The notes beneath the pieces are model-generated. The model was given only the letters and a program-made list of their open reading frames with translations, was not told the DNA's origin and did not search any database. DNA of 64,000 bases from Tubiluchus corallicola (taxonomy: Eukaryota > Animalia > Priapulida): contig JAQGDQ010000870.1 in the NCBI GenBank assembly GCA_030141605.1, positions 1-64,000 of the forward strand. Direction: 5' to 3'. The translations under genes and the position numbers were made by a program. This document shows positions 770 through 39,700 of the stretch, one piece after another. Position 1 is the first letter of the stretch, and each line of letters begins with the position of its first letter.

Positions 770-2004
770 ATGAAGTTGTTACTAGTACTGGGACTAATTT
801 TCACGGTAAGCAATAAACATACAGTTTATAGAATGTATATACCATATTTGTCGTGGCATTCTCTTTATCGCGTCATCATCATCATCACCACCACCACTAC
901 CGCCACCGCCACCACCATCACCACCTACACCACCACCACCACAACCACACAATTTTGCAAGTTACCACACAAGTATTTTAAAAAATATACAATAAATAAG
1001 CTTGGCGCCTTCCTTTCATGAAACAGAAGCTCCGAATTTCGTTTTGCAAGGAAAAATTTTCTGGCAAAACTCATGACATCTATTTTGCAACTACACTTGA
1101 GACTAATAATGATCTAAAACTCTCTGTTGAGCTTCGAACCGTAAACCTCTCAACTAATAATGGTGCTGAAAAATTAGCAATGTTTAAATAGCTAGAAGTA
1201 ATAAATACATTTTTTGCTTTGCAGTTGAGTAGAGTAGACTCCAGTGGTGTAAGTTTTGGTACTGGTGCTGGCTACGGAGGCGGTGTAGGCTATGGTGGCG
1301 GTCTTGGATATGGCGGTGGTGCAGGCTACAGTGGTGCGAATTATGGTGGTCAACCGTACGATGTTACATACGACAAGGGTTCCTACGGCGCTCATCTGAA
1401 AGCGGCTTCTGGAGAAAAAGCTGTTGCTGCTGCCGCGAAATCCGCTGGACGTCTGGTGGATGCCAATTATGCCTTGAAGGACAAAACCCATGCGGACTCC
1501 AAAACCAAGGTCCACGCTTACCAACATGCTTACAGGAAGGGCTATCAATGGGCTGAGCCAAAGGAGCACTACAGATACAGCAAACGCAGACCCATTTATG
1601 GTGGATACGGAGGATATGGAGGTGGATATGGATTAGGTGGCTATGGTGGGCACGGTGGATTTGGAGGATATGGAAGTGGCCTTGGTGGTTACGGTGGATT
1701 TGGAGGTGGTTATGGTGGCTATGGTGGATTTGGTGGTTACGGTGGTTATGGGGGTGGCTATGGAGGTTATGGCGGTTACGGTGGCGGCCGCGGTGGTTAC
1801 GGCGGGTTTGGTGGCGGCTATGGTGGTTATGGTGGCTATGGTGGATTTGGTGGTTACGGTGGTTATGGGGGTGGCTATGGAGGTTATGGCGGTTACGGTG
1901 GCGGCCGCGGTGGTTACGGCGGGTTTGGTGGAGGCTATGGTGGATATGGTGGAGGTTACGGTGGATTCGGCGGAGGATATGGAGGTTATGGACGTGGATG
2001 GTAA
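770..2004 (+). CDS. SP1: secreted Gly/Tyr-rich (GGY/GGF repeat) structural-type protein, about 271 aa, 2 coding exons
   Basis: Exon 770-805 (MKLLLVLGLIFT, preceded by acceptor ttttgtag, followed by GTAAG) splices in phase 0 to exon 1225-2004 (tttgcag|LSRVDS...). This gives the signal peptide MKLLLVLGLIFTLSRVDS, then GYGGG repeats, a non-repetitive domain (1357-1602) and a long (GGY/GGF)n tail ending GRGW. Confidence 0.9.
873..950. repeat. (CAT)n/(CAC)n trinucleotide microsatellite in SP1 intron
   Basis: Directly visible tandem repeats; they explain the poly-Thr in the 770..1021 ORF. Confidence 0.9.
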
Positions 2005-2782
2005 ATAATTTCCAAATTAGTAGATTCACCAAATCGAAACTAGCCAAAGTTGTTTATTGTTTGTTAAATATTGTTGTTAACTAATAATATTAATTATTAT
2101 AATAACCATGATAACCATTTTTATGTTAGCAAACTGTGATAACAATTACACCTGTACTAATGACTGGTTGTGGGCGAAGCTGAATTATAAAAAGGAGCTC
2201 TTATTTATAATATTGAGGCCTATGTCGATGAGTGATGACGCTGTCTGTGATAGTAAGTTTTCTTTCAAAGGTATACATTCATGATCAATCATTGTTACTC
2301 ATTCTGTCAATGTTAACAGTTTGTATTATTAAGTGACCTGCAGACTGTGTAACTGTGACAAGCTGCTTATAAATAGATATTTTTGCAAAAAATACTTCTT
2401 GTTTTTTTTCGTCTTTTGACTTATAAGCTTGTGATATTACAAATGAATGTCATAACCATAGTAATAAGTAGCAATTGTTTTCAATCAATTTTAAAATTAA
2501 AAATCATTTCAAAATTCAGCACTATAGTTGAGACGTTGAACGAATTTGAAAACATTTACTGGCAAAAGTAAAGCATGTCCCATGATTGCTATTTCAATAA
2601 ACCTTTGCATTCAGTGTTTACGAATCTCCTCAGTAAACCATCAATAACTAACTGCAGTGTGGCTGCTCTACTAAAGCATGACAAATAAATAAATGAAACG
2701 TAGATCAGCAATCAAACAAGCAAACTGACAGACAAACAAAAAATTACTGCATACTTGTGAAACAAAAGTTAAATATATACAT

Positions 2783-2846
2783 ACACACGCACACGCACAC
2801 GCACACGCACGCACATACACACACACATACACACACACACACACAC

Positions 2847-2897
<51 letters not shown>

Positions 2898-2912
2898 CAT
2901 ATATATATATAT
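2783..2912. repeat. (CA)n/(CACG)n/(TA)n compound microsatellite
   Basis: Directly visible dinucleotide array. Confidence 0.95.
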
Positions 2913-5116
2913 AATAAAACAAAATCAATTTTCCCGTCAAAGGTGGTACTTTGACGAGAAAATTTATTTGAGTTTATTTTGTTTATTTTTCTTATTTTGA
3001 TGCACTTAAGTCTAATATATATTAGAGGTTGAAGAATAATTGAAAAAACAGAAATGGGGATGATTAGCTATACATATGCCTATCGTAGATTAAACGTTTA
3101 TTAAAATTTACAAGTTTTAATCTATAATTGAAAAGTTCTTGTTGTGAATATATGTTCATCGTCTATAGACATGCTCACTATTTTCATGGTCAAGCTTAAA
3201 CATAATTATGTATACTAGATGGCGCCTGTTTTCAAAGGCGGATACGTTTGTTACAATATAACTTATGTATCGAATCTCACCCTCATTATCCCGAAAAAAC
3301 ACAATTTTTCTGATTTTATCGTTCGTTGTATCAAACATATATTAAATGTCGAAGAATAAAATAATGAAAAACACTGTGGGTGATTTGTAGGCTAAATATC
3401 TAAATGTGCCTTAGATAAATGTCATAGGTTCGCATTAAAAATTAACATTAACGTTACAAACAATTAAAAAATGTTTGTAATATATACTGCTGAAAATTTA
3501 TTAGTGTCACTATACGGTTTAAACTTTTAAAAACTTGATGTAAACTTTGCCACACTGGAGAAGATTAGTTTTTTAAAGTGTTAAAACTCTTTCCATGAAT
3601 AATAATAGTTTCGGTCTGCACTGTCATGAAGTAGCAACTAGGTAATATCATTTCGAAAAATGATTTCGAAAAAACAACATTATCAGAGGTCATCCTTTAC
3701 TTCATTTTATTAAGCCACTGCTCCAAGTTGATGAGAGAGAGAGAACATTATTAATCATCTGAGACTGTTTGCATTAAAAAACAAATAAAAGTGTTATATT
3801 TAAAACAAATTGACAGTTTGTTTAAGTGATTGTCTAGTAATATTTTTAGTACTTAGATCTATATACGGCTCGGGAATGGGATTCAATAGTTACCGCCCCT
3901 CTTCAGTAATTACTTTTGCCGCAATTATTATAATAATTATAATGCGCGTAACAGATTAGATTTTTTTATATTCAATGCAAAATAGACTTACGGAAATTCT
4001 CTATATAATATATCGTGGTTCGTATGTATGAAACACAATTTCTGATCATTTGAGAAATGTAAATTCGCTGTCCATTTAAAAAAACTGTACGAAAACATTT
4101 ATGTTTTATGTGTATGATCGATCATATAATTTATATATTGTATCACCAGTCTGATTTCGATATGTAGCTGATGTCACCGTAAACAAATTTTCACATGCAT
4201 AATCATTTTGATGCCTGCATGATCTTTTGAGTCTTGTTTGATTCACATAATTGAGTTACTTTGCTTTTTTATTTTGTTTTACACTCTTTGAAAATCTTCG
4301 GTGACGGTCGGTAAAATTTTCTCGATAATATGTGTCTTATGGGATCTGCCATCGTAATAGTGATTATCATGATGTAGCCTATTGTCAGTGAAAGAAGTGT
4401 TATAACATTCTTATAACCTTGTTATGTTATAACTTGACAACGCTGAATTCTGATAAGCTACCCAATGCCAATTTGAAATCATTATGGAGAAATGCGTTTT
4501 TGGTTTGTTATAATGAGTATAATCAATAAAATGAATGAATAAAAGTTATATAAGAATGACAAAAAAATATGAAACTTAAGCCTTGCGAACCTGCCGACTG
4601 CTCACGTTGGGTAATGAAGTTCAATTCTCGAAATAATATTCTTACTAGTTGCCTAACGTACCTAGGACACCGTATGTTACAGTATTATTCGCAGTACTTT
4701 AGTATCACCATTAAAGGTAGGTTACTACCGTGCTACAGCAGCAGTTTTCTACTTCTAAACTGGCAAAATATAAACAATGAAAGTGAACGTAATTAGTTTA
4801 ACCTATTTAGCTCAAAAACAGACTAAAATGGAAAGCCACTACAAACCCGGTCACAAATATTCAGATTAGAAAGCACTTAATTGCCACTTTTAGCTAATTA
4901 CTGACTGGCCCGCCGACAGTTTAAGACTTGTAGGTGACATATCTTAGCAAAAACCATGTCACTTCGGTCAGAGAATCAAACCCAGTGAAAGTTGTCACAC
5001 ATTATGACATTACTGTGTTAGCAAATAACATCACTGTGCTTCTGCTTTAAAACTCATAGTATATCTTAAGCACTTTTCTAAGACTTAACAACAATATATA
5101 GATTAATCGAAACAAA

Positions 5117-5852
5117 ATGGAAATAATACATTTCCTATTGTTGCTAACAGTAAGTAATTGCATTTTATTTTCTTGTTATTGCAAAATTAGTGCGTCAAAA
5201 TAGAGCAGCAATAATAAGTGACTAAGCTGTAGCTGCTTTGCAAGTGTTTAGATAAGATAAATTGTAAAGATTTTTAGAGCTCAGCTTTGCTCGTGGTTAT
5301 TCGATTCGGTCACATGTATTACAGTTGAGCTGTCTTTTTCTAATCAGTTGTGTCCAATCATTTTGATTTTTATCCCATATGTAGTACCAAATGCTGTTTG
5401 AAGGATTAATCCTTGATTTTTTCACAACTTTTCAGTTGAGTTTGGGATCCGGTTTCAAGGTTCCTCTAAACAACGTCTACTACCACACAACCGGACCACA
5501 CCCGGATAAGTACCTTGGACCAGGATATGTAGGACATGGAGGCCTATCTAGAGCTGCGTATCTACCTATCTTAGGACAACAGGTGGATGGTGTCACCAAC
5601 GTACGACCTCTTTCAGGGCATACCGATCTGAGAACTCAACGAGGCTGGACGAATACGGTTCCTGGTTATGTGTTGGGTTTTGGTGGCAGAGTGGCATACA
5701 GCGATGAGGACCCGGTCAATAAGGTCATATCACACCATCAGGGTGGGTGGGTCCGCGGCGGGAAGGCAAATAATTTTCATTTAGCGAGTTTCAGTCCGTT
5801 TATGAACATCCGAATGGGGTCATACAGGCAGAAATTCCCGGATTTTGGCTAA
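5117..5852 (+). CDS. SP2: small secreted Gly/His/aromatic-enriched orphan protein, about 149 aa, 2 coding exons
   Basis: Exon 5117-5149 (MEIIHFLLLLT|GTAAGT) joins in phase 0 to 5436-5852 (ttttcag|LSLGSGFKVPLNNVYYHTTGPHPDKYLGPGYVGHGG...). The join creates a clean signal peptide, and the exon is GC-richer than its flanks. Confidence 0.82.
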
Positions 5853-6529
5853 TTTCGCCATTTTCAGTGATTTCTGCTTTCAGTGTTTTGTTATCTAGAC
5901 TTTTAAATTATACGTGATTCGCTAAGATCGTAATTTGAACTATTCCTGATTGCTATTTAATTTGCTTTTATGTTTTATAAATTGTAACAAGCAGATAACC
6001 GATTTTTTTATTTCGCAATATATTCTGTTAATTTCTTTCATTATTAGTGCAATTGTTTGTTTGTACGAAAATTACATTGTGTATACTGATGTTCGTAAGT
6101 TGCAAATTAATTATTAATTAATGTTATATGATTTGCGTTATATATGATTAATAAATGAACAAAAAATAACCTGCCTTTATTTTGTCTTCTTAAGTTTTAC
6201 AAACAAATGCGTTGTTCCTTTAGATCAGATTCTTTATTTTGACAGCTAAGTCATAAATTACATAAAAATATACACATTGTTACAATTGTTATTACATTTA
6301 CAATTATAATTATAAAAAATATCTAAAACTACAATCATCAAAAATATAAAAACACTACAATTTTAACCGTCATTTTAACCCTGAGGCATATTTTCAGTTA
6401 AACGCTAACTAGCTAAATGCCTAAATGATATCAAATATATAGTTGTTTTCGTTTACTTTTGAAAATTTTAGATTGAAAATAGGGGGACCGAAATCAAAAT
6501 ACATTTCACATAAAAGTTCTGTAAATGTT

Positions 6530-6880
6530 GTAGTCTAACAAATAGAGAATAGAGAGTAAGCTGAGCAAAGTAAGAGATGCCGTAATTTAAATACATTTGT
6601 CTAGCACTGCAGTCGCACTGAAGTAAGAATAGATTTCTAATACATTTAAGTAATTTTAAAGTCTCTCCATAAATTAAAAAAATTTCTCCACAAATGGCCA
6701 TTCCACAAATAGAAGAGCAATAGGTTTTGAAAAGTAAAGTTTTAATTTCTCTAGAGCTTTTCCAAAATTAGGAACACATATTTGCTCTTCCGGCTAATAA
6801 ACATTTTGCCGCTAGATGGCCTCATCATCATCGGAAGAATCTGTGATGTGTCCTAAATACTTCTCATTGGTTACCGGATT
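6530..6880 (-). mobile_element. degenerate 3' fragment of a non-LTR retrotransposon (LINE, CR1/L2-like) ORF2
   Basis: Minus-strand translation gives EKYLGHITDSSDDDEAI*RQ..., REIKTLLFKTYCSSICGM and IRNLFLLQCDCSARQMYLNYGI. These match the post-RT region of the LINE at 50220-51716 (EKYLGHILSKD..., KRQLFNAYCTTFYCM). Confidence 0.65.
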
Positions 6881-7468
6881 TAACTGAATTTCATTATAAC
6901 CGATTTTTCCAAATTGTATATATTTATAGTTTTTGGTTTTACAGTAATTAACTTAGAATTTTCACAGTTAACTATAATATCAAACTCAATTTAGTCAGCA
7001 GACCATCAAGGACAAATGGCAAAAACGGGTAAAATGCTCATCTAGCTTTTTATAATTCATACAAGAATCTCATTTAGTATCATCAAAGGTGTTTAACTAA
7101 AGTTACAAACCGCCAGCAAAAGCGCAAAAAACACGTAATCTAAATCATCAAACAAAAACGCTAACTCATTGTGACAAAAATACGAAATCGTAAAAAGAGA
7201 AAAACGTAGTGCTTACCTTTCTGTAAATTACAAGATAACATTTAAATTGCGTGATTCAGTTTCCACCTTTATTGTTAAAAAATTACTGCCTCGGTAATTC
7301 CTAGTTTATGCAAGAGCCTAGTCTAAATGACAGTCTTACAGTTTTGTTTCTGAAACAGCCTGAGTCCAATCATAGGTATCTTTTTAAGTATGGGCGTGAT
7401 TCAAACAATTTTTTTCTTAACATTGACTTTGACAAAAAGAAAACCGTAACGGGATAAAGACAACTAGC

Positions 7469-7554
7469 TATAAATAGGCGTCTTCTCCACTTTTATAAAT
7501 TAAGCTGTGGGTAAATGCGTTCGTGTTCAGTGGCTTAGTGGACGAAAGGTAAGC
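7469..7554 (+). promoter_or_regulatory. putative TATA box and non-coding first exon of SP3
   Basis: TATAAATA at 7469-7476, a strong donor AAAG|GTAAGC at 7549, and an acceptor (ttcag, 9259) six bases upstream of the SP3 ATG. Confidence 0.55.
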
Positions 7555-8296
7555 TATATTAAAAAGTGTTTTTCATTTTGTAAATGAAAGTATGAGTGCG
7601 AGATTCTCGCTTACCGTGTAGGCAATTTTTACATTCAAACTAGTTTTTTTGTTAGTTTTATTCCAAATCGTGGATGGTAATTATATGGCTACACACAGAT
7701 GTAGTCTTTAAGATGTTGTTCTTATGATAAAAAAAATCGTATATTGTTTTCTTTTTAATTTAAAGACCAGTGTCCCTATCAACCCCGCATGTTAGGGTGA
7801 ATAGAGACAGCTCTATTTTTAGTTCTTGTACTCATCTTGCATTACATGAGGTGAAACAGGACACAACTTAGGTTTTAAAAAGCGGGTTTTAAAATCAGTT
7901 ACTTTCATATGTAGGATAAATTTACAAAGCTTGGCTATAATAGCGCAGATAATTGATCTCATATCTTAGAAAGAAACCCAACATTTTAGGATGGGTTTCC
8001 GCTAACACAATTTGCTCTTGTATTGTATTGTTTTTATGTTGTTTTCTTGTATTGTGGTCCAGCTGGGAGTCGTTTATACCTGCTTTATAACTGCTCAAAA
8101 ATTCACAAAAAAATAAAGAATGATTCAAAACTGAAAAAATCTATTTAGATATTACTGAAGATAAGTCTCAAATGCCAGCTACTGTTCAACTGATTAGGCC
8201 TTTAAAATAAAAATTTAGACTACCATTATTTGAAAAAATTTAATTTGAAGCGACTTTGAAAACAATTTTATTGAAAGAGCGCTTTGCAAATAAATA

Positions 8297-8298
<2 letters not shown>

Positions 8299-8365
<67 letters not shown>
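8299..8365. repeat. (TTA)n microsatellite
   Basis: Directly visible. Confidence 0.95.
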
Positions 8366-8366
<1 letters not shown>

Positions 8367-9265
8367 TATTATATAATGACATTAATTTATTTACTTACTA
8401 CTTCGTTGTCCACAAAGAACAATATTTTAACTTAAATTTAGACTAACCGCCTAACAGTCGTCCCACTTGTTTTGCTAATGCCTTAAATGCCTTACAGAAA
8501 TGTTTCCAGCACTGTTGTTACTTTCCACAAAAAGTTGATGTAATTAATGTGATAATCTGATCATGACATCTACAACATGACTTACCGAATACACGAAAAA
8601 CTTGCAAGAAAAAGCAATCCGTTTCGTTATCGTTTTATTGCGTACACCTGTTGCTTTTTTATATTGTGGTTCAGAGCATTGATTCAAAACAGCGAAAACT
8701 TTGCGCTAATAATTTGTTCTTTATTGTTGATAGACCTAGTAACAGACTACATTTGGACTGTTGCAGTACGATTTACCTGTAGTCACATATTTTCTCTTTT
8801 CCTCATGATTATTCAGTTGCTTAACTAATAAACTAATTAACTGATCACGAAAAACTTCCAAACGAAAATTATAATTTAGTACTTCCGCCTCGTTCAAGAT
8901 TTTATCAAGTACAGAAATATTTTTGTTGACAAACAATAGATGGTAAAATTGTACTCAAAAATATTATACAGTAAAAACTGGTACACGTATATACGGGAAA
9001 AACTATAATAAAATGGAAAGGGGGAGCTGTGGTTAGATTGACCATGGTGCGAATGTACAGTAGTGGTGTAAACTAAAAGTTCCTAATAAAATACTTTGGC
9101 GCTGATCATAAACCATGTTTGGCGGATTCCTGCCGGTGGGATATGTACCGAGTTAGACTTGAGAATTACTCACGTCTCATTGAAATACAAAAATGGTGTT
9201 TTACATGGTACCAGTATTTCTGCATCTGCTACCTTTTAAAAGACACACAACTGCTTCAGATCAAA

Positions 9266-10576
9266 ATGGATTTCGTCTTCCTCCTCTTCGCCGTGTCCGT
9301 GTTCACTTCTGTTGTCGATGCGGAAGGCTACACAAAAGGGCCGGATTACTTTACAACCGTGATAGCTGGACCTTACACGCACGCTCGTGTTGTAGGAAAT
9401 GGTCAGAAGAGCGCTGTGAGCACTTATATCCGAGAAGGCCATGCGGCCGGCGCTGATTATGCCAGAGACCAGGCCCAAGCGGCGAAAACGTCGGCCCAAG
9501 CAAGAGGATACGACTATGCGCACAGGTATCAAAACTGGATATATATATATATATATATTTTACTCTTACTTAGACTATTAATTATCTAATTATAAATTGT
9601 GCCTAGGCTGCTTTTGAACTTTGATGATAAAATCCTAGACTGGTTCGGTCCAAAAATGAAAAATGAAAAGATTGTGGTTGAGCCTGAATTTGAACCAAAG
9701 ACTTTAGGCAAAGTGATTACCTTGTACGCATTTCACCTGAAGATTCCATCATGGATATTCCAATAATACGTTCTTATAAACAGATGGCACTACAATAACT
9801 GCGCGTTTTATCGCATCAATATGTTTACAGCATTTGTATCGCCAACTACTAAAACTGAGTATTAAACTAATAGAAGTTTATAGACGTTGAATTAAAGATT
9901 TAAAACATATTCGATTGCCACAATTGTAGCTGGCCATGTACCTGCTTATCATTGCAAGTATTACCAATGTAGCCATGCACAAAAACGGTAGAGAATAATA
10001 CAGTGAGTGGATGAGGCTTGCGTGATGTCAACTCAGAAAGTCATCAGTTTTTACTCTCTACATTTAGGTCCTCAGAACTAATGAGAAAACTGACATTGGT
10101 GCAATATTTTCATTTTCAGATCAGGAGCATCATACTATCAACCAAAGTTGTTGTACAGTTACGTCTATGATCAGCCTTTGTTGGGCTACAGAGATGTTAA
10201 TCCCAGCATTCCACACATTGATACAAACATTCAAAAATTGGATTTGCCAATGGTGCCATTTCCGTACCAGCATTTAAATGTACCAGTTAATCATGGACGC
10301 GAATCTACCTACGGTGATGGCACATCTGCTGGTTATCATGGCAAGGAAGATAATGAGTACTTTGACTCCAGATACAGAGCACCCTATGAAAACAATGGGT
10401 ACAGGGTGGAAGAAGGTTACGATGCGCCGTATTATGATCGGTACAATCATTATGGTGTTGACAGTCCTTATGGCGACGAATACAATTCTAAAAAATATAG
10501 AGATGATGGATATGATTACCCTAAAGATTTTCGTGCTCATAGTTATGGCCGACAAAACAATAATCCTTATTACTAA
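9266..10576 (+). CDS. SP3: secreted Tyr/Asp/Gly-rich protein, about 238 aa, 2 coding exons
   Basis: Exon 9266-9525 (MDFVFLLFAVSVFTSVVDA signal peptide ...GYDYAH AG|GTATC) joins in phase 2 to 10120-10576 (ttttcag|A TCA GGA...), restoring the frame of the 10148..10576 ORF. The C-terminal 91 aa contain 19 Tyr. Confidence 0.88.
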
Positions 10577-11979: not shown

Positions 11980-13972
11980 TTACTCTGAGTTTAGATAACC
12001 TGCGTGTTTATTGCTGTCTGCAGTGAAAGCCAAATAGTTCAGTTCATCTAGCCTAATCCGTCCTTGCCGTGAGGATTCTGGTATGTTCTTTGTATCTTCC
12101 TCCTGTAAGACGGCAGCAGCAGGCGAAACGATTTCTGGAAGCTGCTGTGGCGGCGGCGCTGGTTCTTCCGGCAACTCGGGAACAGGCGGAGTGTCCGGTA
12201 CACGGTCTGGAGGAATAATTGGTGGTGGAGGAATGATGGGTCTACCGCCATCAGTGTCTAGGTAACCTTGGTGTTTGAAACTAGGCTGCTGCCAGGCTAG
12301 CCAGTTCAACTGATCTAGAACAAGAGGCGGTTGAGCAGGCTCTGGAACTTTTTGCAAATCTTCTTCAGTTATCGCAGGTAAAGCAGGTGGAATAACCTCG
12401 ATTGGTTCTTCGTCCACAGGTGGTGGAACCTCAACAGGCGGTTGTATTTCGGGCCTGGGTGGCGGCACTATTGGTTGAATTTCTTCTACTGGTGGTCGTA
12501 TGATTGGTTGTATTGGTCGCACTGGCGGAAGAGTCTGCAACGGGCGTGTCGGTTGAACTGGTTGTTCTTGATTATAACCCTGATGTTTGTTACTTGGTTG
12601 TTGCAGAGCAAGCCAGTTTAAGAGATCCAACCTTAGTGGTGGCCGAACTGGTGGAATGTCCATTTCAATCTCATCAGTTATTACAGGTAAAGCGGGCGGT
12701 ACATCCGGTTGTGGCTCAGGAACAACAGGTCGGGTAGGCATGGGTAATGGGGGCAATACATTCGGCTGTGGCTCGGATGGTAGCGGTCGAGGTATCACAT
12801 CGGGTTCTGGTTCTTTGGGTGAAATATCAGGTACACGATTCGGTGGAATGACAGGAGGTTCTGGCCTGATTGGAGGTCTGGGGCGCACAGGCCTTTCTTC
12901 ATCAACATCTTGATAACCTTGATGTTTGAAGCTAGGCTGTTGCCATGCCAACCAGTTCAACTGGTCAAGAACAAGACGAGGCCTAGCCTCTGGAACATTT
13001 CTCAGATCTTCGTCAGTTATCACAGGCAAAGCTGGAGGAATGATCTCTACGGGAGGCTCCTCTTCATCTGGTTCCTCTCCTAGAGTAGGGAGTTCTTCTG
13101 GCGGTGGTGGTTGCTCCCTTCTTGGGGGTGGCGGTTCCTCTCTTCCTGGTGGCGGTCTTCTCCTTGGAGGTAGAGTATCAACATCTTGATAACCATGATG
13201 CTTGTAGCTAAAGTCCTCCTTTCCTAGGTAGTTTAGCTCAAGCTGGGCTGATGCTACACAGATCAACTAAACAATAAAAAACATCTATCTAAAAGTAACT
13301 GCCTTTCAGGCTTACTTGCCATTTTACTTTATTATTAGTTTGTACAGTAATTATATTCCAGTGCATAACACGACACATTCCAAATTAATTAAGCAGTTAA
13401 TCAGTTAACTAAACAGATCAACTAAACACTTAATCAGGCTTTTGCGCATTATTTTTTCTAATCAGCACTAATCATCAATGAATAGCAGCAAAACATAAAA
13501 ATATAGAAATGTTTTTTCTGTATTAAACATTCAAAATTTAATGCAGTAAAGGACAGCTATACTATGCCGTTGTCCTTATATTTCAGCTTTCTTTAATAAA
13601 AATATTAGTTCTTATTGCCGGGTAGTTTTGATTAAAAATCTTGCTATTACCAGTTTTACAGTAAATATTAACTTTGCGACGTTTCGGCCACTAGAGAGAT
13701 TAGTTTTACATTTTATAAGCAGCATTATAGAATTTAAACATCACGCACATTTAAAATGACAATAGCCCATAGAATCTCCTCTGTATGTTCAGCTTCAGAT
13801 TTTTTATAGCCAGAGCCTCATCTAACAAGCATTCGAATTTGTATTTAAGCGTTATTCTAATAATAAAGAGGAGCATATTGTGATTTTTGCACCTATAAAT
13901 CAAAATCTTAATGTTAAAAATGAGAAATCGAATAAGACTTGCCAGCAAGCATAAACCAGTTGATTTCTTCAT
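11980..13972 (-). CDS. SP4: secreted Pro/Glu-rich repeat protein with five LN[WY]L-x5-SxKHxGY motifs, about 438 aa, 2 coding exons
   Basis: Exon 13972-13943 (MKKSTGLCLL, donor GCAAGT) joins in phase 0 to exon 13266-11980 (tttag|LICVASAQ...), giving the signal peptide MKKSTGLCLLLICVASA. The second exon is an uninterrupted 428-codon frame with internal repeats. Confidence 0.88.
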
Positions 13973-21958: not shown

Positions 21959-22129
21959 AGAATTTACGTTTCCCCACACAATTTAAATACCCTATTCCTA
22001 GCCCTAACCCTAACATTAACCCTAACCCAACCGCAACCTTAACCGTAACCTAAACCATAACCCAGCCCTAACCCTAACCCTAATCCGCCTCACGAATTGA
22101 TATCTTGTGTGTGGGGAATTGTAAACTCT
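21959..22129. mobile_element. short MITE-like element with imperfect TIRs enclosing degenerate (CCCTAA)n repeats
   Basis: Left end agaatttacgtttccccacaca versus reverse complement of the right end agagtttacaattccccacaca; internal ccctaa-like array at about 21990-22085. Confidence 0.6.
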
Positions 22130-25047: not shown

Positions 25048-28000
25048 GCGTGTGCGTGTGCGTGTGTCACTGCAGTGGCGTAACAACTAGGCTGGGGGCC
25101 CTTGGACAAATTGAATGAAAGGCCCCATATCGACCCCATTTTTAATTTTGTAAAAAAGTGTTGAAGTAATGAAATTATTATAAAACACAAAAAAATGATT
25201 AAATGAAAAGCGAAATCGAACTTTATTATTATAGCAAATAGATTACAAAATTACTACAAAATTAGATACACCAAAATAGAAATAAGGCAACAAGTAACGC
25301 ATACACAGTGTATGTCAAGTAGAAATCCTGGAATGAAATTGATCTACATAAATTTTGCTGATCGAGCCTTAGTGTTGGCAAACTTGTCTGTAATATTGTC
25401 GACGTCTAGATCTAGGGGAAAACCCTTAAGAGTGGCAACCGGCAATCCTTCGGCATGGAAGTCAGTTCCCCGTTGGTTGCCAAAATTAGTAGCCAATTTA
25501 ATACCAAATAAATACGCATTTTCCTGTCTGTAAATTTGCATGTTTTTAGGGTCAGGCTTAGGGGCCCTAGCATTTGTCTAGCCTTGTCCAATGGGCGTTA
25601 CGCCACTGCGTGTGTGTGTGTGTGTGTGCGTGTGCGTGTGCGTGTGCGTGTGTGTGTGTGTGTGTCTTAACCATCATTATCATCATCGATGCTATTGTTT
25701 TGCTCATTTCTGAAATGGCCATTAGCATACAGACTCTATTTTTGCACTTTAGTCAACTGCTACTAGCATGGTAATTATGATGGGTATGATGGTAATTTAT
25801 CTTCCACTACACATGTCATTATTTGATTAATGTGGAGCTATAAAATTACATTGTATTTGCTTAGAATCACTACAGGTGTAACTAAACCTTATGGTGCCAA
25901 TAAAATCGTTTAGGCTTCATTATGCATGTAATTGAGTGCGTTTGAAAGCTAAACAGTCAAAAGTAATTTATCCACAAATTTTTTTTCTTATATGCATATA
26001 TCACCGGAGCACCGGAACTGTTATGAAGTGTAAATATGAAAAATTAACTTTTCACGTTTTTCTTCTTACGGAAAAATCAGTCTGCCACACGTAGCGCATA
26101 CAGCATATGAATCCTGCACTGAATGTCGCAGACTTAATTTGTAACTGTGCCACTGTCTACGGGGCATAAATATCAACGCAAATATTATTCTTCATTAATA
26201 ATATAATTTAATAGAATTTATTATTGTATTCAACACATAATCTTCATTAAATTTTGGTACATTTTAGAATGCGTTTCAGCTTGCACAGACGTAAGCGGTA
26301 TTAATTTTGTGTTGAAATAGCAGAGGGTGACACGGTTTTGAAGTGCGCTACATACACAACCTGAAGCGCATCCATGTTTAAGGACAAGGACCTCTGTAAC
26401 CAAAATAGATGATGATGATGATGATGATAAGTCTTTATTAGCCTCTTTTTGCAGGCAAAAATTTCTGTACAAACATTATACAATTTTACATAGACACTAG
26501 AGTGAATTCTACAATATTGCATGTTTCGCATTCTGTAATTAGCTTTTCTAATTTGTGCATATAACATTATTTATAGTGATGTTAAACAAGAAGTAGTGAA
26601 GTGAGTGCTAAAATTAAGGTTATTAATGAAAAACATAAATAACGTTTATTTAACAAATATTATTTTTTAAAAAAAATCTGAAATGTCAAACATATCTTTT
26701 TCTAGCAAAAAAGTGTACGAAGGGATAGCTGTGCCATCCATGTTTTTTCACGGCTTAGGATTTAATGTTGCGTTAACTGCTAAGTAGCCTAAATTAAATT
26801 TTTATTTGCCCAAAGTTTCAAACGGAAAGGAAACGAAACGTTGACAGCTCCCAACAATTGAAAAAAGGCCATTTGCTGGTTTTACATTCTGTCAAAACCC
26901 ATACTTTGCAAAAAACAATAAGTCGCTCATTTCACGTTTTGTAACTTATAGGAGAAGGTTAATGCAGTAGTAGAAAAAATTATTATTCAATCGACAAAAC
27001 TAGTGGTACTTTAAATTCACTTTACCCAAACTTTGCAAAGTTGCTCCAATATTGCATTATCTTCTTTGAGAGAATTTTCTCAACGGCAGTATACTGGTCG
27101 CTTAGCAACGGCGTACCGAGTACGTACACTCTCTCAGCCGTATGTGTAACACCCATCCACTTAGGACTCTTCAAATACTCTGTCCTATGCGTGAATAAGT
27201 ACATAAAAACTGGAATGTCACGCCTTGCAAAATGAAAGGCCTGAATGTCTTGCTGACATAAAAAATTCCAGTCACCAATCATGCCAATAATGCCTTTTAT
27301 GTTAGTGTCATTTAGATACGGCCAATCATTGTATTCAAATCCCGTTGCGCTTGCGACAACTGCTGTCCAATGCCTGGGGAATATTTGTGCAACAGCCTGG
27401 TCATAATCTCCTTTGCTTATGTTTAAATATTCAGTCATCGGAAACAACTGCGGGAAGCCATTAGCCGCGTACGTGGCGCCCTCATCCTTGCAGCTCCCTA
27501 GTAAAATTTCGGTCCGTTCTTTAAAATGACCACGCTGCAGCGAAATCATTGGCGCTTCCTTAAGAAAAAAGCCATCAATGGTAGGCACAAACGGATTATC
27601 AAAAATTCCTTTTTCTTGTTCCTGTTGCCACTGTTTATCACAGATTTCTTCGAAGCTAACATTTCGCAGACATTTAATGATTAGCGCAGCATCAGGAAAA
27701 TGGCAATCAGTAAGCTTAGCGAGATGAACTGATCGTTTTAGGGCAAGCTCTCTTGGTGAGAATGCCCAAGGCATGATCGCGGCACCACTTTCCATAATTG
27801 CTCGCTGAAATAAGTCCCTACTGAACGGTGATAAAAGATGATAGCTGACGCTAGCAGAACCGGCACTACCACCAAATAGGCTGATCCTCTCACTGTCACC
27901 TCCAAATCTCTCTGCGTTCTCCCTTATCCACTTCAGGGCCAGGCGCTGGTCCAACAGGCCCACATTTCCGGGAGATTCTGGGCTATTAAGATACAGAAAC

Positions 28001-28527
28001 CCTAAAGCACCCAACCGATAGGCAACAGAGAAAACTATGACGTCGCCGGTAACGACGAAGGCGTCAGGAATGATGGCGGCAGTTCCGGTCATGAACCCAC
28101 CACCATGAATGTAAACCAACACGGGCTTCTTAATGTTGCCACTGGGAACCCAGACATTTAGGTATAAACAGTCTTCGCGCATATCTTCACTCCAAGTTTC
28201 ATATTCACTGACCTGATGTATGAGCTTGTCTAGCATCTCATTATTAACTAGGGAAATCCTTTCTTTTTGCGCACAAAATGGAGCCAGCGAAGTGGCGTTG
28301 ATGACATCAGACCAAGGTCGGATTGGTATTGGCGGCATGAACCTGAGTGTACCAATTGGTGGTTCTGCATATGGTATGCCGAAGAAGTAAGAGAGATCTT
28401 TATTCAAAACTGTTTTCACTGCCCCTTGAATTTTGCCAGTTGTGGTGGATACCACGGGGTCACTCAGCTGATCAGAGTGAGTTACTGGTGTTAAAAGGAA
28501 CAGTAAAAGCCACATTGCAGTCATCAT
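23196..28527 (-). CDS. secreted type-B carboxylesterase / cholinesterase-like alpha/beta hydrolase, about 599 aa, 4 coding exons
   Basis: Exons 28527-27026, 24890-24700, 23497-23458 and 23262-23196, all GT-AG, phases 2/1/2, total 1800 nt. Signal peptide plus motifs GIPYAEPP, EDCLYLNVW, HGGGF, GNVGLLDQ, FGGSAG (Ser), KDEG (Glu), GVTH (His), WSNFAKFG|NPN...WP..W...CEYW. The ORF-track stop at 27022 lies inside the intron (GG|GTAAAG). The last two exons are less certain. Confidence 0.9.
24984..25066. repeat. (TG)n microsatellite, continuing at 25609-25664
   Basis: Directly visible; interrupted by the hAT element. Confidence 0.95.
25073..25608 (-). mobile_element. non-autonomous hAT-superfamily DNA transposon derivative (536 bp)
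   Basis: Perfect 12-bp TIRs CAGTGGCGTAAC (25073-25084) and GTTACGCCACTG (25597-25608), subterminal GGGGCCC motifs, and an internal minus-strand remnant DLDVDNITDKFANTKAR resembling the extreme C-terminus of hAT transposases. No clean 8-bp TSD seen. Confidence 0.8.
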
Positions 28528-29694
28528 GCTAATATATCAGGGCAGCTCATTCGATATCCTTGAAATGGATTCAGACTATATGTCTGTGCTGATTCATTAT
28601 TTTGGTTTTCTGAACCTACAAAGGGAAATAACAGTCTTTATTAAACAGTAAAGGCTGCAAACAGTAAACACAAGATTCTGAGTTACTGGTGTCCAAACAG
28701 TGCGGGAGAACTCGTATAATCGTATTATGAAACGTCAACTCAAATTAAAAAAAACTTGCTATAGAAAGCTCTGAGAATGTGATTTGAGTATATATGTTTA
28801 GACCGATACCTTTATGCGTAGTCCTACCGAAATGTGTGCAGTATTAGTCACTTTGAGTACTTTAGTGACCCAGACTAAATAGCGCAATTTAATCAAATTT
28901 GGTTACGTCGGAGCATTGATTTAAAGTTAACTGCATATCTTATTGCATTTGTTATTAACCCAAGTTAGAACTGATAATGGCAGAAACCAAAGTTTTTGAT
29001 ATAAATGAGGTCCCACATAGTTGAGCGGTAATGGTGTGTGCTTAGTGACTGAAGTTACGTAACGCCCAGTTTTGCCAGCAAATGGAAAGATGATTGCCAG
29101 AGAAACTGCTCCTAGGCAGATTCATCTGCCACAGTGCCCCCAGCTGTTTATCTCGCTCGGGTTAAATTTATAAGATTTAAGCTTCAACGATTACCCTTGA
29201 TAAAAATTCAGGTTCCGGTCTCGCAACAAATATCAAGATAAAGTAAAACCTCGTCATTGAGTGATGGACCATGGCATGTAGAGTGTGGAAGCCTATAAAG
29301 AAATTTTCGTAATTAGATTGGAAAAGGCCTGTTTGTGAAGCCATAGCCTAATATTCCTATTATTGTAAAATATAGTGCAGCATTCTTGAACATTCTAACG
29401 GAAATAGATTTAGATATATATCTTTCTCTCTACAGGTTTGTTTCGCTACATCTCTGGCTTTTATATAAAACAGTAACGAAATTTGTATTGTCATTATTAT
29501 TAACGCTGTTAATGTTTTAAAGGATGCAAGAAAGGATTTTGTGGATTTTGAAATTAGAAAGCTTGCCATGGGTTTTTCTGAGGAAGATTTTTCAACCTAT
29601 TTAAGAACCTAAATTAACGCTATCAAAAGCGAAAATGTTATCATCAAAATAGTCCAGTAGATATGAATTATGAATCAGTGTTTAGTCAGCAATA

Positions 29695-32369: not shown

Positions 32370-33709
32370 TCTAGCTTAATTTCAATCTAAAGCAAGCGTA
32401 ACAAATTCAAGAGAACAACAGACTTGTAAATTTATCCTAAGCGTTTTGCCTAAGAGCTTACACTTAAATTCACGCCCGAGCTCACACGTGCCCGCAGCTG
32501 TGCAGAGAGAGATGTGTTGTGTTTCCAATACCCATATAATGCAAAATATTTCGTTTTAGTGGTGAATATAAACGGTATAGCAGGGATTGCATTGTCATCT
32601 CATATTTAGAAAATACCTAAAGCGGACGTACGTCACATATTTACGTGACGTGAGTGTCGTATTGAATTATAGCAAGACTATCATACGCGTATTCTATTAT
32701 TGTAAGCAAAGCATCACGAAAACATTCATTAGAGCAGTATAATGATGTAGTGAATATAGATAACGTAAGCAGTTTGACATTTTTGTATTATCATCTTGCA
32801 GGTGTTTCTGGTGATTATGCTTAATAGTGGTAATACTATAATGATTGGGCTAGCGTTTTAGTGCTGAATTCGAGCTAAAACGCACGCGTGTGAAGGTCTG
32901 TGACCTACATTTTGATAATCTTAGCATCTTGCCTTAACTGCTACTGCTGTTACAAGATTGTGATAGCATAATTCCCTGACCCAAACCGGTAGAATTAGAA
33001 TTCTTAATATTGGCTCGATGGATTTGATCTTCGAAAGAACAGCTAGCGTCACCTATGAACGGAATTGTTTATAATTTTGGATATTTTTTCTGATTGCCTA
33101 AGTCATGTCGGACATAATACAGCTCAAGTACCACTAACGCAACAACGCATTATTTTAGCAACACTAGTATTTACCAAGCAGTATTCGTACATTTTCAATT
33201 AGTCAAACATATAACCTCTTTGGCCGTGCACTTAATCACGTTGTTTCTTTGGGAGTTAATAATGTTGTTTACTTGTGTTCTCACGTGTGTTATCTCAACT
33301 TACCTGTGGTATTAAGCAAACAAAGGTAGTCCTCTGCAACGACGTGTCACAAATCCTGTAAAACCTTTACAATCTACAGGAAATGCTAATGAAGTAACAG
33401 CTAAAAATCCACTTCTAGCTTCTAAATTTGAAATCAAAACGTCCCCAAACGGGAAATCACCTGCAATTTCACCTGTGCCAAGCAGCTGTTGTGCAGCTTT
33501 TACTACCACTGCCCTCTGTTAACAGAAAATGCCTTAGTACATGCACCTGCATGTTTACATAAAGAGGTTAGCTTATAAATAATATTTTCAATGTAAATAG
33601 TAGCCTGTACTATCTTTCACCACAAATATGACTAATATATTCATCGGGCAAGCAGCAATTCTATTTACCGTGCAAATGTCTACATGTGAACGTGTTTGAT
33701 TAGGCCACC

Positions 33710-36700
33710 ATGCAGTACTTCATCTCCAGAAACATGGCCATTATTGGCGCTTGTGGACTGGCAATTGGTGTCGCTGTCGTCGGCGTCGTAGTCGGCAAGA
33801 TTTCTAGAAAATGTGAAGCCGCTGATGCTGTTCCTTCAAAACAACCGCCAACTGTAACCACAGCAACAACAACTGACAACGCAACTGCCAGTGTGACTAC
33901 ACAAACTCTTAATCCTACAAACGAAAGTGTGACAGCAAGCCCAATGCCTACAGAACGACCAGACCTGCGCCTGCCAGGTAATATTACACCTGTCCGCTAC
34001 AAACTCTACTTATGGCCAGATATAGATAATTTCACAGCTACAGGTTCTGTGATTCTAGAATTCAAATGTCTTCAAACTACAAGACAGATCACTGTACATG
34101 TTAGCAAAAAACATTTATTTATTGACGCTCTCAAGACCCAGTTGATTCACGAGAGAAAACATGTAAATATCGAAAGCCAGTATTACGAAGAGGAAAAGGA
34201 ATTTTATCATGTTTTTGTCAGCAAAGCATTGTCAGAACTGGAAGATTATGAGCTGCATTTAACGTGGAATGGTATTTTTTCGGGCGATCTAAAAGGGCTT
34301 TATGGCAGTTTTTACACAGATGGGAGCGGGAAAACGAAGTAAGTTAGTCATAATTATGTTTTGTTGTTATACCCTTTCTGCTTCTTGAATAGCGGTTTGG
34401 TACATGTAACAATGATTGAATCTTTCTATGCTATGGTCGTCTCATCTACGGTCATTTCAAGCATGCACTTAAAATAGAACAGAAAGTGTACCAAATGTAT
34501 GGGCAAAGCTAACTAGAGTGATTCAGGCCCTTACAATAACTATAGAGTCAGAGGAAACCAATTCTACTTACAGCCATATTATCGATTTTTTTCGAAGGTG
34601 GATGGCTTCTACGCAAATGCAGGGTCCATATGCCAGACGGGTATTACCTTGCCTGGACGAACCGTATTACAAGGCAACGTTCAGTTGCACAGTAGTAAGA
34701 AAGAAGCATATGGTGGCTCTTTCAAACACAGACATCCAGTCTACTGAAACAGTGTGAGTTTGACATAAATAAATTAGATATATGCCAGAAAATATAGTAA
34801 CACACAATCCTGTGCTAATTTACAAACAAATCACTAACGATTATATTGCGTTTACTGTTTAAGATAAACGTCCTAAGAAAGATACTTATTTAACCTAAGC
34901 ACATACACTCAAAATTAAGCAATAGTGAAATTTTATCACAATTTTTTTCTCAAGTTTTCCTCCTTATGTCGAATGTCGATTGACGTTTCATCTACTAGCT
35001 ATGACTCATTGAATAGACTCATTTTCGTGCACGACAAAGCTGGAATATGGCATTCAACTTAACTTTGGCCACGGCTATTCCCCTGAATCCCTTAGCGTCT
35101 ATTCAAAAGCCGAAATAATTCGGCGACTCTATTCATACATGTTAACACAGCTGCACGAAATTTCAATAGAGAAAATATGATAAAAAAATTATCCCCCGGT
35201 ACCTAAAAAAGGATTGTTTAGCTATAAGCTTATGAAAAGTTTTTACTTCAGAGAACTTATTAACATAACTGAATCAGGATAATTCAAGATAATGATAGAT
35301 ATGGAGTGGCATGTCAAGTAAATTGCATATGGAGTGAGGCTCTAGGGACGTAACGGGTGGATACTTTTGTGTTTTAGCCCAGGACATCATGATTGGGTTG
35401 CTGATGTTTATGAAGAAACTCCAGTCATGTCAACCTACCTTCTTGCCTTTGTTATTTGCGAGTTTCAGCATTTGAACATTACAACTGACAATGGTGTTAA
35501 GGTAAGAAACCTTCCAAAAATGCGACCGTAGCTACCATGTCGTTCGTTAAATTAAGGAAGAACACTTATGATCTTTCACAAAAATTCATCTTCTATAATC
35601 AAAACCTAAATTACCAAGAACCTCTGCATTAAGGCTGTTGTCAGAAATTATTGTGCTTTTACCCGATTTCAGGATTAACTGTATCTGCTGTGGGTGAAGC
35701 TAGTTCGTTGTTCTGCGACAATGCCGTAACCAGTGGTAGCATAAGCTCTTCCAAAACTGACTTAGAAAATCCTTTCACGTGATGTACGCCAAAGGCCATT
35801 TGAAACAAACAGCAAAGGAGTCGAAGATATCCAAACGAGTCTGATTTGGATTAGCATGCTACCATTAGTTGGGTTGTGTCATTAGAGTAGCAGAGCTAAC
35901 TGGCACCTTGCGGAGGATCTAATTAAGCTGGTAAACCTAGTTAAGCATAATAACCGCTTGTTTTACCAAAGGAACTTTTGTAACGCATGTAGAGTTACTA
36001 AATTTCTAAAATCTTTCCACCGGTATTCTATCGCTGGCGTTTTCTTCAATTTAGATACGAGCTTGGGCAAGACCAGAGTTGATTCATCAAGCTGAGTATG
36101 CACTTTTTGCAACTGCACACATCATTGAACAGTTTGAGGCGTTGTTTAATGTAAAATACGCACTTAGTAAATCAGGTATGTTATATAACAAACAACGATT
36201 ATTTAAACAAAGTCTTAGGTAATTGTCAGTGATAATTACACATTTGAAATTTTGTTAGTGCACAGGTCAATTGTTGCATTAATTTTGAAAATGCAATGAT
36301 AACAGCAGTTGTGGAAGGTAATGAAATCTTGGAGAAACGAGGTACATGTAGTGGAATGCGAACGGGTGGTTGTAATGGCACCGGTAAGCATGTCATGATG
36401 ATGGGTAGTGATACTGGTAGCGGTAAAGGCGACAAGGATGATTCTGATGATAGTGATAACGTTAGTGATGATAATGATAATAATAGCAACCATGAATATG
36501 TTATTGGTATGATAATTATGATGATGTTGCTGATAGTGAGTGTGGTGGTGGTGATGATGGTGGTGGTGGTGGTGATGGTGGTGGTGGCGGTGATGATAAT
36601 GATGACAATGACAATAATAAAGACGTTAGTGTTAATGTTTATGAGGACAGTGTTCCTTATGATGATGATAACGATGCTGATGATAATGGTAATAACAAAG

Positions 36701-36732
36701 CATCATCATCATCATCATCATATTCACCATTG

Positions 36733-36774
<42 letters not shown>

Positions 36775-39700
36775 CCATCATCATCATTAATATTATTACA
36801 TCTTCCAGATCTCATTGCGATTCCTGATTTTGCATATGGAGCAATGGAAAATTGGGGACTAGTAACTTACAGGGAAGAATACATGCTTTACGATCCAAAG
36901 ATTTCCACTGTTGCTGACAAGAAATTGATGTGCAGAGTAATTGGACACGAGTTGGCACACATGGTAGCCTGGAAACTACAAACTTTCTTTAGGCTTATTC
37001 TTTACATGAGGACAGTTTTACAGAGGGGGTATTCTTTAAACTGGGAACAGTTTCATAGACTTGTCGCTTAGTTTCACAGTTTACTTAACAAGCGTGGTTC
37101 AACGCTTAATCTAAGTAACTGTGATTGGATTAACAACTATTATCGAATAACAATCGTTATCGATCAGATGTTATTATTAAAGTTTATTGAATTTTTCATA
37201 TAAAAATCATCCGAAATAATCCGAGAAAATACTGAAAATTATTATTGAAAGAAAATGAAGCGAGGTTTTTGGAAGCAGAAAAAGGGAAAGACTACAAAAA
37301 GAAATGACAGCGGGCCAGGGAGTAGAGAGAAAAGAGTGAGTGACTGAGAGAGGGAAAGAGAGAGGGTGGGAGAGGGGAGTGAAACAGTGCTACAACAAGT
37401 CTGTGAAGTGTATTTTGTTTAAAATAATCTGTTTTTAATTGTGAAATGTTTTGTTGCTACACCGCAGTCAACCATTTATGTAATAAATAAAAAACAATAC
37501 AAATCAAGAACCGTCTGATAACGTTAACGCCTTTCCTTGTTTCAGTGGTTTGGTAACCTGGTAACTTGTGACTGGTGGGACCATATCTGGTTAAATGAAG
37601 GCACCGCAAGATTTTTCGAGTTCATCGGCTGTGACTTCACTGACCCAACGTGGATGCTGGTAATTTCGTAATACTGTACAATCGTATTTATGATAAAATA
37701 CTTAAATGTTAGTGTATATTATACTAACCATCTGTGACTTAAATGTGACTTTAAGTGCGAGTGTAATGTGTCATATTTGCTACTATTTGTTAAAATTGTC
37801 TATTGTTACACATTGTCTCAAATTTGGCCATCAATAAAAATACCATCATCGTCAGCTGTACACTGTGTGGTTCATTTTCTACGAGTTATTCTGAGCGTTC
37901 CCTTCTTTTAGAGGTCAGTGTTCATTTGTATTTGATAAAACGTTTCCAGGAGGAGCAACATTTCGTCCTGGATAATTTCCCACCTGCGCTAGAACTCGAT
38001 GCACTGGCCTCCTCACATCCAACTGTGATGGATATCATGACAAATGCGGAGATTGAGAGCACGGGGGATGCAATCACCTCCTCAAGAGTAAGAATGCTTC
38101 TTTTAATTGCATCTTTCAAGTGTGAAGTCTCACTTAGCACTATCAATAAATCTTGTCTTTTTGTGACTCTCTAACTCCATTCTTACTAGGTTAAAGAGTG
38201 TTCTTAGCTACTTTCGAAAAAGCTTGCTCGCTTGTTTCAGTGCACTTCTTCATTTTTATGTAAGATGACATTTCAGTAAATTTAAAACAACTATGTAGTG
38301 TAATTATTACCAGTTCATAAATTATATAGTCTCATAAAGTGATTATAAATTTACTAATACGAAAAAATAGTTAATCAAAATTTCTTCTTAAATTTAATTT
38401 AGAAGATTTTGATGCGACTATTAACGAAAAGAAAGATAGAAGTTTCCTTGTATTCATGTCACATCCGACATAAAAGTAAATTTTCATTTTTGTGTTTTAG
38501 GGGTCGTGTCTTTGCTTAATGATGGAAAGCATGATTGGAAAGGAAGCTTGGTACCATGGAGTAGAAGTATATATTTTATAATTAAAAGATAAAAGCCTGT
38601 CCTTGTGTTTTTTATGCCCACTCACACACTACAGTGAACCCCAAAGTGGCATACCAAGAGAACCAACAAAAGGTTTTAGGCCTCGGAAAGGTTTTAGGCT
38701 AAGTCATAGCCCACTCCCAAATATGGCGGCCAAATGACGTCTAAAAGAACATCTGCACCGCGGGCGAATTCAGCTAGTAATCTATTAAACATTAGTTTTG
38801 TGCAGTTCCGTGTATGTCCTGCTTAAGTTTCAACAACGAGAAAAATTGCTATAATATTTAAGAAAAGGGCTTCCTAATAGCAATAACTTTTTTGTTCATT
38901 CGTTTATTTTTTGCATTCGTTTAGCATCATTTAAACCGATTGGCTTTTGCTACCTCAACAACTGATGATCTTTGGGAATCACTACAATGGGTAAATATCA
39001 GCTTCTTATGCTAGGGATCACAAGGAATCAAAATAGCATTTGAAAATATGAACGTTTGTGGAACTGAATTGTTTAGTTTCGCGAGTTTTTTGTTGCTATA
39101 GTTTTGTCATCAAGCTCCACGGTGAACCCCTCTACCATCTTTATTGACTTATTGACTTATTTAATGCAAATCTAAGATGATGTTATAGATCTTTTGTCAT
39201 CCGCGTTTTTTATAAATATGTTTATTTTCCCATCACCTTTTGTATACAGAACAAAACTCATTAACATACCTTAAGTACTCTAATACAAAGCTGAGACATT
39301 TATAATTACATATCTATAGTTTTACAGTGCGTTAAGTGCAATCTAATGGTGCAAAATGTTAAATTAACGTCTACTGAATCGGCTTAAAGCTCTAATAAAT
39401 CTCTGCGTTATATTAAAGGTAGCTTTGAATTCGTCAAGATTGAAAAGTAAATTACAGTGTAATAATGTATGGATTTTGGTTTCGATATTTAATTCATTAA
39501 TATTAACTGGGAGAAAGTTTGAATTATCTTCCGTGTTTAATTAATTATTAAAATTTCGTTCTAGGCAGTTGAAGATTTAAAAGTGGAGTTAGAAGGAAGA
39601 ACCGTGAAGGAAATAATGGACACGTGGACGTTGCAGATGGGATATCCGCTTTTAATTGTAACAAGAGATTACGGCAACGGCAGAGTCACCGTTGCACAAA

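Follow-up and report, generated by a model that had tools for sequence, protein, structure and literature searches.

Two predicted secreted proteins of the priapulid Tubiluchus corallicola, SP1 and SP3, share an 82-residue domain that also occurs in eight proteins of Priapulus caudatus. Both are encoded in the window analysed here, 64,000 nucleotides of contig JAQGDQ010000870.1 (assembly GCA_030141605.1, positions 1 to 64,000 of the forward strand). Judged by their sequences, SP1 and SP3 are almost certainly homologous, paralogues of one family, and with the P. caudatus proteins they make up a real, unnamed priapulid protein family. Its members are very probably secreted structural proteins. 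As to how they may work, we give about even weight to the reading that the fixed-length core forms long beta-strands and, by packing against further copies, builds fibres whose probable place is the cuticle.

A preliminary description of the window had aligned the SP1 and SP3 segments without gaps and counted 21 identities in 82 positions. Recomputation returned the same coordinates, translations, identities and gapless register. The BLOSUM62 local score of the pair is 87, which none of 5000 shuffles reached (mean 30.6, maximum 68). The same was true of every set of 1000 shuffles, whether whole sequences or 10-residue windows were permuted, with two matrices and in both directions. A reversed-sequence control scored 39. 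Taken separately the two halves are marginal, since 24 of 5000 shuffles reach the score of the exon-1 part and 4 of 5000 that of the exon-2 part, and a tblastn search with the SP1 domain picks up nothing of SP3 beyond its exon-2 part, at an expectation value (E) of 0.41. Because each half is weak and tblastn sees only one of them, the match is hidden in the open reading frame (ORF) track, as the preliminary description had stated.

That the match crosses the SP3 intron had also been taken to support the splice model, and this holds up. Among 220 enumerated donor/acceptor pairs, the junction 9526/10120 comes out on top both with SP1 as the reference (87; runner-up 60) and with protein P0004 of P. 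caudatus (391; runner-up 322). The resulting model (9266-9525 + 10120-10576) is the longest frame among the 220 pairs and encodes a predicted protein of 238 residues. P0004, itself a predicted model, runs uninterrupted across the site of the intron, and SP1 has no intron there. We regard the junction as very nearly certain; it rests on homology because no SP3 transcript was seen. Contigs from run X2, which we guess to be RNA, cover neither the SP1 core nor SP3 at 85%/80% likeness and are uninformative on expression.

The eight P. caudatus members are XP_014668263, XP_014668264, XP_014666800, XP_014665992, XP_014678354, XP_014664989, XP_014677301 and XP_014678922, all predicted models, which between them bear the labels P0003-P0010 (the first three are P0004-P0006). 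They were turned up by phmmer and profile searches. A phmmer search of 1.84 billion representatives, with the most divergent family member as the query, gave three matches: two P. caudatus proteins, one of which has a near-identical neighbour, and the top-ranking P0002, a repeat-derived ORF that matches through short repeated words and was discarded. The profile search gave six matches among 6954 candidates of 33-317 residues (longer proteins were outside its scope), all from P. caudatus and five of them new. No arthropod protein was among the matches of either search. A word-based search with the SP1 region returned none of 26 candidates at E<=0.01, and none of 521 pattern matches in metagenome contigs was confirmed. 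Public scalidophoran proteomes are few. In the opposite direction, a hidden Markov model (HMM) built from the eight P. caudatus cores only recovers SP3 exon 1 (E 5.9e-24), SP1 (E 1.5e-8) and SP3 exon 2 (E 4.8e-8), and the next-best of the 1484 ORFs in the window stands at E 0.77. In Pfam scans of the window proteins and the homologues, from which HMMER's filters remove the majority of matches weaker than E 0.1, no family passes for any member.

The P. caudatus proteins resemble SP1 and SP3 in their gap-free core, N-terminal hydrophobic stretch and low-complexity tails. SP3 is identical at 51-53 of 82 positions to P0004-P0006 (XP_014668263, XP_014668264 and XP_014666800, the first two adjacent loci going by number), as against 21 to SP1. 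SP1 is the most divergent member (16-26/82 identical to the others), and none of the eight is clearly its orthologue. Since SP3 is closer to P0004-P0006 than to SP1, either the duplication would predate the divergence of the two species or SP1 has changed rapidly; the tree, with an SP1 branch of 3.03, leaves SP1 unplaced. In the database two of the eight are uncharacterised and six bear names borrowed from proteins to which they are unrelated (WW-domain-binding, fibroin, elastin, FUS and, twice, keratin), misnomers that evidently stem from the low-complexity tails. P0003 carries at residues ~400-435 a second, partial copy of the last third of the domain, which starts near the position of the SP3 intron; either a duplicated exon or an error in the gene model may account for it.

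The domain is of fixed length. All ten sequences align gap-free over 91 columns at identities of 16-81/82, with two MAFFT settings and in a full-length alignment, and the tree sums over these columns to roughly six changes per column. The arms on either side range from 5 to 186 residues (N-terminal) and from 11 to 173 residues (C-terminal), and the tails differ in make-up, being Gly/Tyr-, Gly/Ser-, Gln- or Tyr/Asp-rich. In SP3 the domain is followed by ~35 residues resembling P0004-P0006 and then by a Tyr/Asp/Asn-rich tail. Every protein has one core. By a hydropathy heuristic (with an internal Met taken as the start for P0003-P0005) the N-terminus is hydrophobic in ten of ten members, and a later membrane-like segment is found in none. 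In the poorly conserved middle of SP1 the gap-free register may conceal compensating indels.

Conservation within the core was measured on eight non-redundant sequences, the near-duplicates P0005 and P0006 having been dropped. Ten columns are invariant: T4, G8, G19, G31, Y55, R60, G62, P68, Y72 and G82. Between positions 17 and 59, conservation averages 0.61 in odd columns and 0.24 in even ones. The corresponding power at 180 degrees was reached by none of 2000 column shuffles, whereas the power at 100 degrees, expected of a helix, was reached by 1323 of 2000. The alternation persists in the six P. caudatus sequences alone (0/2000). Along the conserved face, seen in SP3 and the P. caudatus members, Gly/Ala come first, then Arg/Asp/Glu/Lys and then a Tyr ladder; the opposite face is variable and polar. 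The core contains no Cys (in eight of eight counted), 7-11 Tyr, 22-31 Gly/Ala/Ser and 8-13 large hydrophobics, and would for that reason be poor material for a stand-alone globule. A two-residue period of conservation with no helical period favours long beta-strands over a helical rod, and we consider a beta-rich core probable. Thus, of the assembly module envisaged in the preliminary description, in-register beta or helical rod, the length-constrained core with differing low-complexity tails stands and its beta form is favoured; the helical rod is disfavoured.

Differences between the window and the DNA run X1 are consistent with selection on the core, at small numbers. In the SP1 core the differences listed comprise four synonymous and no non-synonymous changes (chance ~0.002-0.006), whereas the adjoining tail has lost 18 bases. 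The SP3 exon-1 core shows three synonymous and three amino-acid changes, the latter in the variable columns 7, 12 and 30.

From these properties we propose the following mechanism. The strand face with Gly/Ala, Arg/Asp/Glu and the Tyr ladder would be the packing face, and the core, which would have too few hydrophobic residues to fold by itself, would pack between chains. An indel would break the register with neighbouring chains, so that inter-chain packing would bar indels from the core and freeze its length. The tails would form the matrix, adjust its properties and contribute the Tyr residues used in cross-links, and paralogues might co-polymerise. Polymerisation through the core seems to us slightly favoured, and the cuticle a somewhat better candidate for its location than an egg coat or cement; it is doubtful that SP1 and SP3 lie within the same fibre.

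Several observations weigh against this assembly model. AlphaFold2, run with one sequence and with 11 rows, yields models of low confidence (predicted local distance difference test, pLDDT, 52 and 43), and both contain helix and no strands at residues ~26-64. The periodicity rests on eight related sequences, and column shuffles ignore relatedness. The alternating face is largely lost in SP1, where Lys/His/Asp/Leu stand in for much of the small-residue face. SP1 is also strongly basic, with a net charge of +8, and no alternation is seen when the SP1/SP3 pair is taken by itself (1999/2000 shuffles reach its value). SP1 may for these reasons pack differently from the other members. Several residues of the conserved face are charged, which sets it apart from the Gly/hydrophobic pattern described for chorion cores. 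Of 24 registers for a single long hairpin, i+j=76 scored highest (r 0.49), yet 222 of 1000 parity-preserving shuffles reach this value, so that it is unsupported. Finally, four of the five differences in the SP1 contig of X1 are those listed, and the X1 contigs are possibly paralogues. As to known structures, a sequence search of the PDB with SP1 gave no matches, and a profile search gave four weak ones (E 0.39-1.9; three ankyrin-type, one hypothetical), which we rejected.

The proposed design has precedents. Lepidopteran chorion proteins have a single 51-residue indel-free central domain with variable flanks and form cross-beta filaments (PMC13252134). Like the A and B chorion proteins described there, the priapulid proteins are paralogues, predicted to be secreted, with one fixed-length indel-free core and flanks that vary in length and composition. 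The cores differ: that of chorion has 51 residues, Gly and short hydrophobics, whereas the priapulid core has at least 82, is Tyr/Arg/Ala-rich and conserves charges. Chorion paralogues number in the hundreds and the priapulid family at least eight; amyloid, demonstrated for chorion, is a prediction for the priapulid core. Pfam scans found no chorion family in the members. The sauropsid corneous beta-proteins offer a second likeness, a conserved core of 34 residues that builds the filament between variable terminal domains (PMC8072682). Their core, with a strand/turn period of ~8 residues and an apolar face, differs from the priapulid one, which has no Pfam or PDB match to them. Corneous beta-proteins are intracellular. 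By analogy, the priapulid family may work like both of these systems; it is a member of neither.

Arthropod cuticular proteins (CPR, CPF, CPLCA-retinin, Tweedle, CPG) have a similar layout, with defining motifs that are absent or loosely matched in the priapulid family. In insects this layout is a signal peptide, GGX repeats and one conserved domain (PMC12426002), and conserved Tyr motifs are described from arthropod cuticular proteins (PMC2932725). In the ESM Atlas, all six nearest clusters listed for whole P0004 are arthropod and the top three are named cuticle proteins (0.90, 0.87 and 0.87), a lead from a single source. The domain alone reaches 0.80, a value that shuffled proteins attain a third of the time and that also counts against our interpretation; its neighbours include Retinin_C and Cuticle_3 clusters (0.79-0.80). 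The conserved cysteines of CPAP and peritrophin-A have no counterpart in the eight Cys-free cores.

These comparisons bear on a different account of the core, in which it binds chitin as a beta-sheet or hairpin, clamps the tails onto chitin fibrils and does not self-polymerise; it would then be the priapulid counterpart of the Rebers-Riddiford (R&R) domain. The priapulid cuticle contains chitin. The Tyr ladder on one face (Y55, Y57, Y59, Y72, Y74) with conserved Arg would suit such a role, as would the insect-like layout and the cuticle proteins among the Atlas neighbours. However, PF00379, the extended R&R consensus (PMC522807), matches none of the window proteins or homologues in the Pfam scans, R&R patterns match none of the ten members, and a ligand-binding fold alone should need no zero-indel rule over 91 columns. 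We therefore consider chitin binding unlikely. The same beta-assembly could instead serve another matrix: the envelope of the egg, which would make the family a true analogue of chorion, or else cement from glands, or mucus. In architecture the family comes closest to one of egg coats (PMC13252134) and the present data are neutral as to tissue, but the Atlas neighbours, weak evidence as they are, belong to cuticle and not chorion clusters, and we give this alternative a small chance. An Ala-rich central helix forming a coiled-coil rod, its length set by heptad register, would agree with the helix in both AlphaFold2 models and with the Ala/Glu/Lys-rich residues 41-53. Against it stand a pLDDT of ~43-53 over that helix, the strong 180-degree signal in place of a 100-degree one, conserved Gly at 17, 19, 31, 35 and 54 and the scarcity of large hydrophobics, which together make it very unlikely. 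That the core is a much-diverged arthropod cuticle motif known under another name (CPF/CPFL, retinin or Tweedle) is hardly credible, for the Retinin_C and Cuticle_3 neighbours and a loose Tweedle block 1/2 pattern at position 69 in seven of ten members (matched by 8% of shuffles) are set against the lack of any Pfam match in members to CPF/CPFL (PF11018), CPLCA/retinin (PF04527) or Tweedle, Tweedle blocks 3 and 4 (as printed in PMC12426002) in none of ten, and searches whose matches include no arthropod protein.

The gene models are collected in Table 1. SP1 (770-805 + 1225-2004) encodes a predicted protein of 271 residues. Its first exon ends at a phase-0 GT donor at 806, and the acceptor at 1225 is the sole in-frame one of two tested near the start of the ORF.

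Table 1. Coordinates of SP1, SP2 and SP3 and of their parts in the window
Feature	Position	Strand	Basis
SP1, first coding exon, most of the predicted signal peptide	770..805	+	sequence and hydropathy heuristic
SP1, second coding exon	1225..2004	+	sequence
SP1, N-terminal arm, Gly/Tyr-rich	1261..1356	+	
SP1, copy of the 82-residue domain	1357..1602	+	alignment and HMM
SP1, C-terminal tail, 133 residues, 68% Gly, 21% Tyr	1603..2001	+	
SP2, intervening predicted secreted protein of 150 residues without the domain	5117..5852 (exons 5117-5149 + 5436-5852)	+	
SP3, first coding exon: predicted signal peptide and domain residues 1-60 (9347-9525)	9266..9525	+	
SP3, intron, phase 2, GT..AG, within the codon of invariant Arg60	9526..10119	+	
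SP3, last coding exon: domain residues 60-82 (10120-10186), then tail	10120..10576	+	

The genes around SP1 and SP3 include further ones for low-complexity, predicted secreted proteins, all without the domain: the secreted-type ORFs at 5385, 11983, 46874 and 55874 gave no domain match by shuffle test or HMM, nor by hhalign in the three tried. In SP1, SP2 and the gene at 12-14 kilobases, a phase-0 intron splits the signal peptide after 10-12 codons and the next exon opens with Leu (770-1225, 5117-5436 and 13266-13972); SP3 differs. This third gene (11980-13972, minus strand) encodes a predicted secreted protein that is rich in Pro and Glu and has no significant Pfam match; a motif ending K-H-[QA]-G-Y occurs in it four times, at intervals. 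An X2 contig of ~92% likeness connects 13266 with 13943. The sequence skipped, GC..AG on the minus strand, is likely a GC-AG intron. At 46871-48187 (minus strand) lies a gene for a predicted secreted protein of 438 residues that combines a long GGYGG tract with a C-terminal region free of repeats and has neither a Pfam nor a significant domain match. In the ORF at 55871-57229 (minus strand), 17 residues (359-375) fit domain columns 52-68 in register (R53, G54, Y57, Y59, G62, P68). This stretch ranks second of 1484 ORFs in a gapless profile scan whose columns were picked post hoc, has an hhalign E of 0.094 and is missed by the HMM; it is possibly a far-diverged relative of the domain. The secreted-gene cluster is interrupted by a cholinesterase-like enzyme in an uninterrupted frame of 504 codons (27022-28536, minus strand; best relative only 48% identical) and by exons that resemble M1 aminopeptidase by eye (33704-37071, plus strand). 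A degenerate telomere-like (CCCTAA)n stretch lies inside the window at ~21995-22085.

Priapulids branched off early among moulting animals, and their cuticle and scalids withstand decay (PMC5011709). PMC11793982 likewise treats the cuticle, and neither paper describes its proteins in the accessible text. We found no paper on structural cuticle proteins of priapulids or on this domain in a literature search that had most subscription journals and all supplements outside its scope; the gene tables that accompany genome papers on priapulids, as supplements, could be relevant here. Since the overall design has known precedents, SP1, SP3 and their relatives would represent a new family and not a new principle. 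Recognising the family puts right six database names that mislead, and provides biomaterials research with a modular scaffold of core plus tail. With a defined, expressible 82-residue module, the composition of the priapulid cuticle becomes testable, and one can ask whether arthropod cuticle domains have a counterpart beyond panarthropods. A bolder idea, which we think rather unlikely, is that the hard cuticle parts of priapulids (scalids, teeth, lorica) are built from a functional-amyloid family of their own, in which a length-locked beta core co-polymerises across paralogues with interchangeable Gly/Tyr, Gly/Ser or Gln tails. If true, the design of chorion and beta-keratin would have arisen independently a third time, in an early-branching moulting animal, and the family would provide a molecular candidate for the decay resistance of the scalidophoran cuticle.

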